Shown here: piece after piece, positions 48,938 through 50,069 of the stretch
Layout of the letters: each line of letters begins with the position of its first letter
Numbering within the stretch: the stretch's first letter is position 1
DNA from: a phage
DNA length: 64,000 bases
Direction: 5' to 3' (one strand)
Sequence record: PZ445134.1
Position numbers and translations under genes: made by a program
The notes under the pieces: model-generated
The model's database searches: none
What the model saw: only the letters and a program-made list of their open reading frames with translations
What the model was told of the DNA's origin: nothing

Positions 48938-49213
48938 TTATTTCATATTATTGAAATAATCTTCAGCGATTTCGTCATTATCATGGTAAACTTTGGTAGA
49001 CGATTTGGCGTAACCTTCAGCTGAGAACATATTAATCACAACCTTTATAGTATACCACTGTCCGTCTTCGTTACCCATTACTGCGTAAGTTTCAAACATC
49101 GGATGGTCAGGTCCAATAACTTTAATATCATTCACCGTACGTCCGAAATCTTCTGGAACGCATTTCATAAAGAAGTTGAACATTTCGCCGTAATTATCCA
49201 TTTCATTCTCCAA
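48938..49213 (-). CDS. hypothetical protein
   Basis: 91 aa acidic ORF. Confidence 0.45.
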   Translation of the reverse strand: MENEMDNYGEMFNFFMKCVPEDFGRTVNDIKVIGPDHPMFETYAVMGNEDGQWYTIKVVINMFSAEGYAKSSTKVYHDNDEIAEDYFNNMK

Positions 49214-49407
49214 GTTTTTTCTGTATCGGTAGTTGATAGTTGTATAGTACCACGGAAGAACAGGGATGTAAACAGTTTTGTGAAAAAATTTTTAAAAGTT
49301 TTTTTGGGAATTCTAGGGCAAGGAGAGGCAATTAAAGGATAGGATATTGTATTATAAAGGGAAGAAACTAAATGATGCCTAGAGAGGTCCAGAAAGGCCT
49401 AGATACT

Positions 49408-49434
49408 AAAAAGCCCCAACCTTTCGGAAGGGGC
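49408..49434 (-). terminator. rho-independent terminator, copy 3 of 3
   Basis: Same GCCCCUUCC-GAAA-GGUUGGGGC hairpin plus U-run, downstream of tRNA/small-RNA region. Confidence 0.6.
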
Positions 49435-49440
49435 TAAGCC

Positions 49441-49810
49441 TTGCGGCAACCTTGTCGGGGTTCCACCTACTAGGTAAGTGTTTGTACGAAACGCCGGGAT
49501 TCGAACCCGGTTATTAAGCAGTTGACGCTACTCAATATTTTTAAAAGGCCGTATCTCGGCCATATCCGAACGTTCCGTCAAAAACGCTACTCGGCTTACG
49601 GCAAAGATATTTCCTCGAATCGATAATTCTGTGCGCCGTTTCTGCTGTGATGTAAGGGGATATTAACAAATCGTAAAGATTTATTAAGACCAGTCCTTAC
49701 GCAGGGAACATCAGTCCGACGACTTACCGGTAGCGACCCGGTTTCTTGTTTGGTGCGCCGGTGAATGCTGGTAATCAGTCTTCATACGACGGCTTGACTA
49801 TATAATAGTC
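49441..49810 (-). ncRNA. tRNA-like / small stable RNA region (possible T4 rnaC/rnaD analogue)
   Basis: No ORF; contains perfect T-arm-like CCGGGUUCGAAUCCCGG and an 8-bp acceptor-like pairing ~90 nt apart but no canonical cloverleaf; also a GGCGCACCA 3'-end-like motif. Confidence 0.3.
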
Positions 49811-49816
49811 TTCATT

Positions 49817-49891
49817 TGGTATCCCGCCCTGGGATCGAACCAGGACCGCAAACTTAGAAGGATCGTATGCTATCCATTACACCAGCGGGAT
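49817..49891 (-). tRNA. tRNA-Arg (anticodon UCU)
   Basis: Hand-folded: acceptor AUCCCGC/GCGGGAU, T-arm CCUGG-UUCGAUC-CCAGG, anticodon loop CUUCUAA, D-loop with GG, encoded CCA. Confidence 0.75.
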
Positions 49892-49896
49892 GTAGT

Positions 49897-49973
49897 TGGT
49901 GACCCCGACCAGATTTGAACTGGTAACCTTTCCCTTATGAGGGGACTGCTGCTAACCATTGAGCTACAGGGCC
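49897..49973 (-). tRNA. tRNA with CAU anticodon (Met or Ile2)
   Basis: Hand-folded: acceptor GGCCCUG/CGGGGUC (two G-U), T-arm ACCAG-UUCAAAU-CUGGU, anticodon loop CUCAUAA, encoded CCA. Confidence 0.65.
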
Positions 49974-50069
49974 TAAATAACTTTCTATTATGAAAGGCAC
50001 TTTAGAGCACCTTTGGTAATAGAGGGTATGAATTAATAATAACACATAATTCTTAAAGCAAATTACGTT

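Follow-up and report, generated by a model that had tools for sequence, protein, structure and literature searches.

Organization of the reduced tRNA operon

Analysis of the 64,000-nt stretch of phage DNA studied here (the window) revealed that positions 49441-49810 on the minus strand very probably represent the distal half of a T4-type tRNA operon in reduced form, with orthologues of rnaD and rnaC, as indicated by homology, synteny and conserved secondary structure. Along the minus strand, the operon consists of a promoter, tRNA(CAU), tRNA-Arg, a 66-nt insert, rnaD, rnaC, the trailer hairpins and a terminator, with the following features:

50036..50063, minus strand: candidate T4 middle-type promoter, with the MotA-box-like ATTTGCTTTA at 50063-50054, 12 nt, and the -10 element TATTAT at 50041-50036
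49897..49973, minus strand: tRNA(CAU), found by ARAGORN and by Rfam RF00005 (55.4 bits)
49817..49891, minus strand: tRNA-Arg(UCU) of the T4 type, found by ARAGORN and Rfam (49.7 bits), near-identical to T4 tRNA-Arg
49747..49812, minus strand: 66-nt insert between tRNA-Arg and rnaD, an alignment gap against T4, where it is absent
about 49630..49749, minus strand: orthologue of rnaD (species 2 RNA), ~120 nt, 88% identical to T4 rnaD over 117 nt (49746-49631)
49485..49623, minus strand: orthologue of rnaC (species 1 RNA), 139 nt, identical to T4 rnaC at 135/139 positions
49438..49484, minus strand: operon 3' trailer, with three small hairpins (49480-49464, 49462-49448 and 49447-49438) in the predicted fold
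49408..49435, minus strand: intrinsic terminator AGCCCCUUCCGAAAGGUUGGGGCUUUUU, assigned from sequence and fold

The source phage is RB69/T4-like. Its closest genomes over 12 kb are RB69-like Mosigvirus phages with ~96-97% identity. The region matches hundreds of T4-like phages, with 767 records, and the stretch with rnaD and rnaC is present in 809 phage records. In the T4 record AF158101.6, one and the same strand carries tRNA-Arg, a misc_RNA rnaD (species 2), a misc_RNA rnaC (species 1) and gene e.8 in this order. The window is colinear with this record from tRNA-Arg to e.8, and the two RNAs occupy the same place, past tRNA-Arg and ahead of the terminator that precedes e.8. The initial annotation had suggested RNAs analogous to the T4 species 1 and 2 RNAs; the likeness goes beyond analogy, as the locus is orthologous and aligns base for base with AF158101.6. 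The ends of rnaC and rnaD in the window were set from the T4 annotation by homology alone. Both RNAs are already annotated in T4 records, and the locus is thus a rediscovery. The species 1 and 2 RNAs of T4 have been known since the 1970s, and the feature, consisting of their orthologues, is therefore of low interest as a novelty.

The G+C content reaches 0.42-0.51 over 49300-49999, compared to 0.27-0.39 in the flanks. As first stated, the 370-bp stretch has no substantial reading frame: no ORF of at least 60 aa overlaps 49441-49810, which holds only a 34-aa ORF on the plus strand and a 42-aa ORF on the minus strand (49669-49541), both with a TTG start. The two clean tRNAs noticed at the outset (Arg-UCU and a CAU tRNA) are the same two that ARAGORN and Rfam find in the 64-kb window. 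ARAGORN detected no third tRNA and no tmRNA in the window, and Rfam at its gathering thresholds reported the two tRNAs and nothing else. No family in Rfam 15 matches rnaC or rnaD, and the weak matches to isrK, tRNA-Sec and RT-6 at E <= 10 were rejected as noise. The early prediction that stable RNA is encoded here is supported, but not as a single element: the stretch comprises two RNAs, an insert and a trailer.

The tRNA(CAU) gene shares 98.7% identity with the gene annotated as tRNA-Ile in T4. Upstream of it, the match to the MotA and -10 consensus was judged by eye, and the segment 50025-50064 shares 92.5% identity with the T4 sequence directly upstream of the tRNA cluster, where a T4 middle promoter is located (PMC2330249). 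By this resemblance, the element probably serves as the promoter of the tRNA operon. In T4, a primary transcript of ~1.75 kb from the middle promoter gives rise to eight tRNAs and to species I and species II, and the transcript of the tRNA cluster ends after the species I gene (PMC2330249, the SegB paper). At the other end of the operon, the trailer is kept in T4 and ABTNLsp5, and its first hairpin shows a compensatory change from G-C in T4 to A-U in the window. The terminator was missed by a consensus scanner because its stem is interrupted by U·U/U·U; the sole flag of the scanner was the plus-strand complement of the rnaD 5' hairpin, which is not a true terminator. In phage GiZh, a feature annotated as "terminator" lies under the match to the 49408-49435 stretch.

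Structure of rnaC

The rnaC copy of the window resembles that of T4 in strand, predicted fold and slot (after rnaD and before the trailer, the terminator and e.8), whereas the operon around it is cut down to two tRNAs. The four substitutions that separate the two copies are all pair-preserving: GGUUG/UAUGG of T4 becomes GGCCG/UACGG in the window, and a U-A pair in the 10-bp arm becomes U-G. The window sequence has a minimum free energy of -48.5 kcal/mol (z = -3.6), and its MFE fold is the consensus fold.

A MAFFT alignment of 15 distinct rnaC sequences gave an RNAalifold consensus, from which the covariance model R1 was built; the window copy scores 162 bits with this model. The consensus is a four-way junction of 41 pairs, 20 of which show compensatory changes. 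In this alignment 97.9% of the cells are paired, compared to 38-45% when the partners are slid, and the covariation was reached by 0/500 shuffles. With the set extended to 23 distinct sequences of about ten genera, the fold comprises 46 pairs with 95.6% of the cells paired and 27 pairs with compensatory changes, again reached by 0/500 shuffles. We accordingly model rnaC as a tRNA-shaped, non-canonical four-way junction with a cloverleaf-like layout; this covariation-backed model adds new structural detail to a known RNA. Its T-arm and two apical loops are located as follows:

49494..49510, minus strand: T-arm CCGGGTTCGAATCCCGG (CCGGG-UUCGAAU-CCCGG), a 5-bp stem with a 7-nt loop that abuts the 3' strand of the acceptor-like stem
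49576..49581, minus strand: hexaloop A, UUGACG, apical loop of the long arm and reverse complement of hexaloop B at all six positions
49522..49527, minus strand: hexaloop B, CGUCAA, apical loop of the 10-bp arm and reverse complement of hexaloop A at all six positions

The acceptor-like stem pairs C2-G8 with C131-G137 over 7 bp, two of which are invariant U·U mismatches in tandem, and one of its pairs is A-U in the T4-type copies and G-C in all others. The position of the D-arm is taken by a long arm of ~65 nt with a hexaloop at its tip; its sequence is wholly replaced in the KMB17-, PEi20- and Klebsiella-type copies, yet the long hairpin is kept. A 10-bp arm with a 6-nt loop sits at the position of the anticodon arm. 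The middle pair of the T-stem varies among G-C, U-A and A-U in the homologues, and in Q7622 and Kc304 the T-loop sequence is replaced while the T-stem is kept. Overall, the loop sequences of rnaC are invariant or covarying over about ten genera, and the stems covary.

The fold accounts for several motifs picked out in the initial annotation. Its perfect T-arm, CCGGGTTCGAATCCCGG, is unique in the window and has 0 matches in 100 shuffles at up to two mismatches; the motif thus stands, but it is not an orphan, as it belongs to rnaC. The acceptor-like pairing that was read between ACGGAACG (49578-49571) and CGTTTCGT (49493-49486) on the minus strand is present in the window but is not conserved: as ACGGAACG/CGUUUCGU it carries an A·C mismatch in Moon-type copies, and the segment is absent from the KMB17-, PEi20- and Klebsiella-type copies, so that this pairing was rejected. 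Instead, ACGGAACG pairs locally within the long arm of rnaC, whereas the partner of the 3' strand is the rnaC 5' end, ~130 nt away, and this pairing between the two ends covaries from A-U to G-C, unlike ACGGAACG/CGUUUCGU. The stretch had been described as failing to fold into a cloverleaf; its T-arm RNA does fold, into a four-way junction of non-canonical form, which is rejected by tRNA detectors. RF00005 (gathering threshold 29 bits) gave no match in 49441-49816 at E <= 10, nor did ARAGORN, and the best score of a tRNA-type Rfam model in the interval was that of tRNA-Sec (15.4 bits, E = 5.9, non-significant). The label "tRNA-like" therefore refers to the fold derived here, since rnaC has no Rfam family and the tRNA model gives it no score.

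A predicted kissing contact between the two hexaloops

Both hexaloops are found at the same positions in 24/24 distinct rnaC copies of the initial set, and they are complementary to each other in 23/23 aligned sequences, with a chance expectation of about 0.002. Four Klebsiella Marfavirus phages have UUGGCG and CGCCAA in their place, a double change that turns an A-U pair into G-C. Because the Marfavirus loops changed as a matched pair, all cells of the six-pair pseudoknot helix are paired (138/138). A kissing contact between hexaloops A and B is thus well supported by the comparison of sequences, but it falls short of proof because the covariation comes from one clade and probably from one evolutionary event. 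We found no description of such a contact in rnaC. The HIV TAR/TAR* complex provides a precedent for kissing between fully paired hexaloops.

Distribution and genomic context of rnaC

Homologues of rnaC are present in Tequatrovirus, Mosigvirus, Dhakavirus, Moonvirus (Moon, KM16 and NM4.3), Karamvirus (KMB17, myPSH1140 and fGh-Ecl04), Kanagawavirus (Q7622 and Kosakonia 305), Winklervirus (Kc304), Gelderlandvirus (Melville) and Klebsiella Marfavirus (EI, VAC36, F48 and Clarke), in addition to Edwardsiella phage PEi20 and Citrobacter phage Ursula. All of the further homologues score 95-165 bits with R1. This range of genera, wider than the T4 group, is a by-product of the analysis.

Outside the T4 group, rnaC sits within tRNA arrays, 5-6 nt past the CCA of tRNA-Met or tRNA-Trp and 3-8 nt upstream of tRNA-Gly. 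The 3' end of the Klebsiella Marfavirus copies encodes a discriminator U followed by CCA; the T4-type copies, including that of the window, have the 3' tail UACAA. The gene is retained in phages that are down to two tRNAs, including the window and RB69. In SHP1, rnaC is precisely absent while rnaD, the trailer and the terminator are present, and a 173-kb phage carries rnaC but no rnaD, indicating that the two genes can be lost separately.

In IMG/VR, a strict rnaC pattern had no matches and a looser one had six. A loop-independent anchor pattern hit 87 loci, which were rejected because, apart from known T4-like genomes, they proved with R1 to be chance matches to tRNA T-loops. A pattern for the 3' end found nine metagenome loci, all of the T4 type, and therefore revealed no new rnaC diversity. 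The same 3'-end pattern had no matches in 185,579 bacterial and archaeal genomes, which argues against a host or prophage source.

Structure and variation of rnaD

The T4 rnaD is annotated as a 119-nt "small, stable RNA; species 2 RNA". Compared to it, the rnaD of the window has an identical 5' hairpin, basal stem and slot between tRNA-Arg and rnaC, whereas its distal arm has diverged. The spacing from tRNA-Arg to rnaD also differs, from 1 nt in T4 to an extra 66 nt in the window, where the 5' boundary of rnaD was placed by homology only. The 5' hairpin ACCGG/CCGGU with its 7-nt loop GUCGCUA is almost invariant, and a long hairpin is closed by GUCGUCG with the 3'-terminal CGGCG(C)AC. The consensus fold has 32 pairs, nine of them with compensatory changes; the 5' hairpin and the basal stem, being almost invariant, are backed by conservation and not by covariation. 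The window copy has an MFE of -34.6 kcal/mol (z = -2.8).

The distal arm of rnaD occurs in three unrelated sequence versions (T4-, T2- and SHP1-type), all of which form hairpins. The 3' end reads CACAG in the window, CACCA in T4 and CCG or CAG in most relatives; a CCA end is thus not family-defining, since CACCA is confined to T4 among the 11 sequences compared. Matches of an nhmmer rnaD profile were limited to Tequatro-, Mosig- and Dhakavirus loci.

The 66-nt insert between tRNA-Arg and rnaD

The insert contains two hairpins. The first, GACUAUUAUAUAGUC, has 6 bp and spans 49810-49796 on the minus strand, whereas the second, GCCGUCG...CGGCGC, is followed by an ACCA tail. The latter includes GGCGCACCA (49759-49751, minus strand), which had been taken for a 3'-end-like motif; the motif is where it was seen, but it belongs to the insert and does not terminate the T-arm RNA. 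Its occurrence as a 9-mer is within chance (4 matches at up to one mismatch, compared to 3.5 expected). The ACCA tail is AACA in ABTNLsp5 and is therefore unlikely to be a functional CCA end. The insert folds with -16.4 kcal/mol (z = -3.0). It was found in only 27 phage records, mostly Dhakavirus-like, and the copies, at 97.8-100% identity, are too alike to yield covariation.

Comparison with the basal stem of rnaD showed that AAGCCGUCG..GACUGAU and CAGCA..CGGCGCACC of the insert match both strands of the stem, in order, with p of about 0.02 for each block in shuffling, which is marginal. The insert thus resembles a miniature rnaD and may, on this marginal likeness, be a mini-copy derived from it. 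There is a serious competing possibility, to which we give somewhat less than an even chance, that recombination left the insert behind as a scar: it would be what remains of the 3' end of an RB69 ORF150c-type gene formerly located between tRNA-Arg and rnaD, rather than a mini-RNA derived from rnaD or a third stable RNA. In RB69, T2 and several other relatives, precisely this junction is occupied by an ORF that ends at the rnaD 5' hairpin, and the insert is weakly similar to the last ~45 nt of such an ORF (29/43 matches); for three of the five comparators, 14, 7 and 4 of 500 shuffles score as high. The non-conserved tail, AACA in ABTNLsp5, also fits a scar. However, the similarity to the ORF150c end is marginal, and the likeness to rnaD, equally marginal, is structurally coherent in that it involves both strands of the basal stem; moreover, the insert folds better than its shuffles, as given by the z value above. 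The 27 near-identical copies provide no covariation either way, and the similarities that speak for the two origins, the ORF150c end and rnaD, both have p of about 0.01-0.05.

Proposed expression, maturation and role

In T4, RNAC and RNAD are late RNAs "of yet unknown functions" that were validated by Northern blot (2022 omics study, PMC9697503). The sense oligo of the RNAC probe template of that study is identical to the first 58 nt of the window rnaC. In T4, the blot shows rnaC as a discrete, stable species of ~140 nt. The papers from 2010 to 2025 consulted here give no function for the species 1 and 2 RNAs.

In the window, a transcript starting at the middle-type promoter would carry the tRNAs together with rnaD and rnaC. 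The stack of acceptor stem and T-arm is the recognition unit of RNase P, so RNase P probably cuts at the 5' end of rnaC. The 3' end of rnaC would then be produced by endo- and exonucleolytic trimming, as for a tRNA, and rnaD may be the remainder between tRNA-Arg and rnaC, shielded by its own hairpins.

With no 7-nt anticodon loop, and with UACAA instead of NCCA as its tail in the window, rnaC does not act as a decoder. We tentatively propose, as one possible role, that it mimics the "top half" of a tRNA and binds or titrates a factor that recognizes the acceptor/T-arm during infection. If true, such a decoy role would explain why phages with almost no tRNAs left still keep rnaC. A host or phage factor, for instance a tRNA-directed defence nuclease or a tRNA-end-modifying toxin, would be a long-shot candidate for the target of a decoy. 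The joint proposal that rnaC is a top-half mimic locked by the kissing contact and serves as a decoy or sponge in trans, with the 66-nt insert giving rise to a third, rnaD-derived processed RNA, appears quite unlikely as a whole. Deletions of the T4 tRNA region are viable on laboratory hosts, so that any role of rnaC or rnaD would be conditional. A convergent SNP in rnaD arose in the T4-like phage BW1 evolved on a semi-permissive host (2025, PMC12685909), which suggests an effect of the locus on fitness that depends on the host.

Among the functional rivals, a cis-acting 3' stabilizer is the most serious: the two RNAs would form a processing and stability module of the tRNA transcript that blocks 3' exonucleases and guides tRNA-Arg maturation, leaving the "stable RNAs" as by-products without a function in trans. 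The position of the RNAs at the 3' end of the operon, directly before the terminator, in T4-type phages is consistent with this, as are the lack of any tRNA-like feature in rnaD, which resembles a protected spacer, and the absence of a reported function for either RNA. However, in Moon, KMB17, Melville and fGh-Ecl04 rnaC lies inside the tRNA array with tRNA-Gly next, and therefore it does not cap a 3' end there. The tRNA operon can also dispense with rnaC, since SHP1 lacks it and keeps the trailer and the terminator. Moreover, invariant loops on covarying stems over about ten genera point to specific contacts and not to bulk structure. Taken together, we consider the cis-acting module unlikely, and the titration of an acceptor/T-arm-recognizing factor is retained as the tentative role of rnaC.

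The locus had also been read as possibly made of decayed tRNA genes, that is, pseudogenes drifting without function with the T-arm as a relic. The canonical T-arm and acceptor-like stem without a detectable anticodon arm, the weak and non-significant tRNA-Sec match and the situation in a tRNA cluster would all suit decay, yet compensatory changes across genera hold the structures in place: they affect 27/46 pairs of rnaC, with 95.6% of the cells paired over about ten genera. Likewise, the hexaloops and the tandem U·U either stay constant or covary, and rnaC is kept where only two tRNAs remain (the window and RB69). Decay is thus very improbable, whereas a tRNA ancestry of rnaC is possible. Finally, the chance that the interval encodes small proteins, as the "hypothetical protein" ORFs of many GenBank records imply, is close to nil: the 42-aa minus-strand and 34-aa plus-strand ORFs exist, and CDS are drawn over the region in T2, G4498, ime09, Klebsiella EI, F48 and many others, but the window ORFs have TTG starts and one crosses the rnaD/rnaC boundary, in Moon, KMB17 and Melville a tRNA gene would take up the upstream part of the frame, frame conservation is lacking among homologues in which indels of 1 and 2 nt and a wholly replaced long arm leave the base pairing intact, and the RNAs have been directly shown in T4 (PMC9697503).

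Implications for annotation

In many T4-like genomes the locus is unannotated or lies under spurious "hypothetical protein" ORFs. The rnaC and rnaD alignments and the covariance model could support two new Rfam families. The comparative structure also provides targets for mutagenesis, including the tandem U·U of the acceptor stem, the canonical T-arm and the covarying hexaloops of the predicted kissing contact. A reading of the sequence alone sufficed to spot this locus of non-tRNA stable RNAs.

Comparison with tRNAs and tRNA mimics

Compared to the tRNA family RF00005, rnaC shares a 7-bp terminal stem on a 5-bp T-stem, the UUCGAAU loop and the four-way junction. It also fills a tRNA-sized slot in tRNA arrays, and the Klebsiella copies have an encoded UCCA. 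It differs from tRNA in that it has no D-arm and has a 65-nt extra arm instead, in addition to the two U·U in the acceptor stem. Moreover, a 10-bp stem with a 6-nt loop is present in place of the 5-bp anticodon stem with its 7-nt loop.

In the tRNA-like domain of tmRNA, in YrlA and Y-RNA-like RNAs and in viral tRNA-like structures, an acceptor/T-arm "top half" is mounted on a non-tRNA body. Compared to tmRNA, rnaC has no tag reading frame and no tmRNA call by ARAGORN. Among the tRNA-mimic RNAs it also stands apart, in that the interval gives no near-significant match to any Rfam family except tRNA and no bacterial homologue was found. Nevertheless, by functional analogy, rnaC appears to follow the same design as these mimics, with a top half set on a non-tRNA body and likely processed by tRNA enzymes.

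Modular organization of the rnaD and rnaC locus

The orthologues of T4 species 1 RNA (rnaC) and species 2 RNA (rnaD) are separable modules. In Salmonella phage SHP1 (locus L008, 704-907; coordinates of relatives are locus-internal), rnaC is precisely lost and rnaD is retained together with the trailer. In a 173-kb phage from IMG/VR (L074, 8489-8630), rnaC is present without rnaD inside the fetched locus.

Comparison of RB69 (AY303349; L003, 1429-2862) with window 49405-49816 revealed that the two phages, ~96% identical elsewhere, are nevertheless divergent at the rnaD/rnaC locus. The sequence of tRNA-Arg(UCU) differs between them, and in RB69 this tRNA is followed by ORF150c (114 aa), which occupies the exact site of the 66-nt insert that separates tRNA-Arg from rnaD in the window. 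In addition, RB69 ORF148c/149c are inserted 3' of rnaC, flanked by two copies of the terminator segment. The junction immediately 5' of the rnaD hairpin looks like a recombination hotspot.

Annotation of the locus and its surroundings

Many deposited T4-like genomes carry "hypothetical protein" coding sequences directly over rnaD and rnaC, some of them with ribosome-binding sites, and in other such genomes the locus is blank. These coding sequences are probably spurious gene calls on structured RNA genes.

Coding sequences annotated over rnaD/rnaC
374-645, T2 PV648363 (L019)
375-679, G4498 (L020)
about 316-455, Klebsiella phages (L115-L118)

ARAGORN assigned the window tRNA at 49897-49973 (-) as Met (CAU), and the gene shares 98.7% identity with a gene annotated in T4 as tRNA-Ile. 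Judging from the T4 annotation, it is probably not a Met tRNA but a lysidine-modified one that decodes AUA.

The sole terminator-like site returned by the scanner lies on the + strand (49726-49742), where a T-rich run follows the complementary strand of the rnaD 5' hairpin; this site may be an antisense terminator, or incidental. A promoter-like match sits 3' of the tRNA-operon terminator and 5' of the e.8 homologue.

Features downstream of the tRNA operon
49244-49272, (-), sigma-70-like promoter by sequence match (TTTACA, 17 nt, TACTAT with TG upstream of it)
48938-49213, (-), e.8 homologue

Repeats, T-loops and 3' ends of rnaC

The 9-mer GAGUAGCGU occurs twice in rnaC (49584-49592 and 49525-49533, both (-)), each copy running into one of the two complementary hexaloops. 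This repetition ahead of both loops hints either at an origin of the two arms by duplication within rnaC or at an alternative pairing.

Among the homologues, those of Q7622 (L005) and Kc304 (L017) keep the T-stem, with the canonical T-loop UUCGAAU replaced by UGCAUGC or UGCAUUC; therefore, the canonical sequence is not strictly required in the rnaC family. The 3' ends also vary: T4-type copies terminate in U-ACA-A, whereas rnaC of the Klebsiella Marfavirus phages EI, VAC36, F48 and Clarke (L115-L118) ends in ...CGUUCCG-U-CCA-A, at about 440-444. The Marfavirus homologues encode a discriminator plus CCA, as a tRNA gene does, which raises the question of whether some family members might be CCA-end substrates, or even chargeable.
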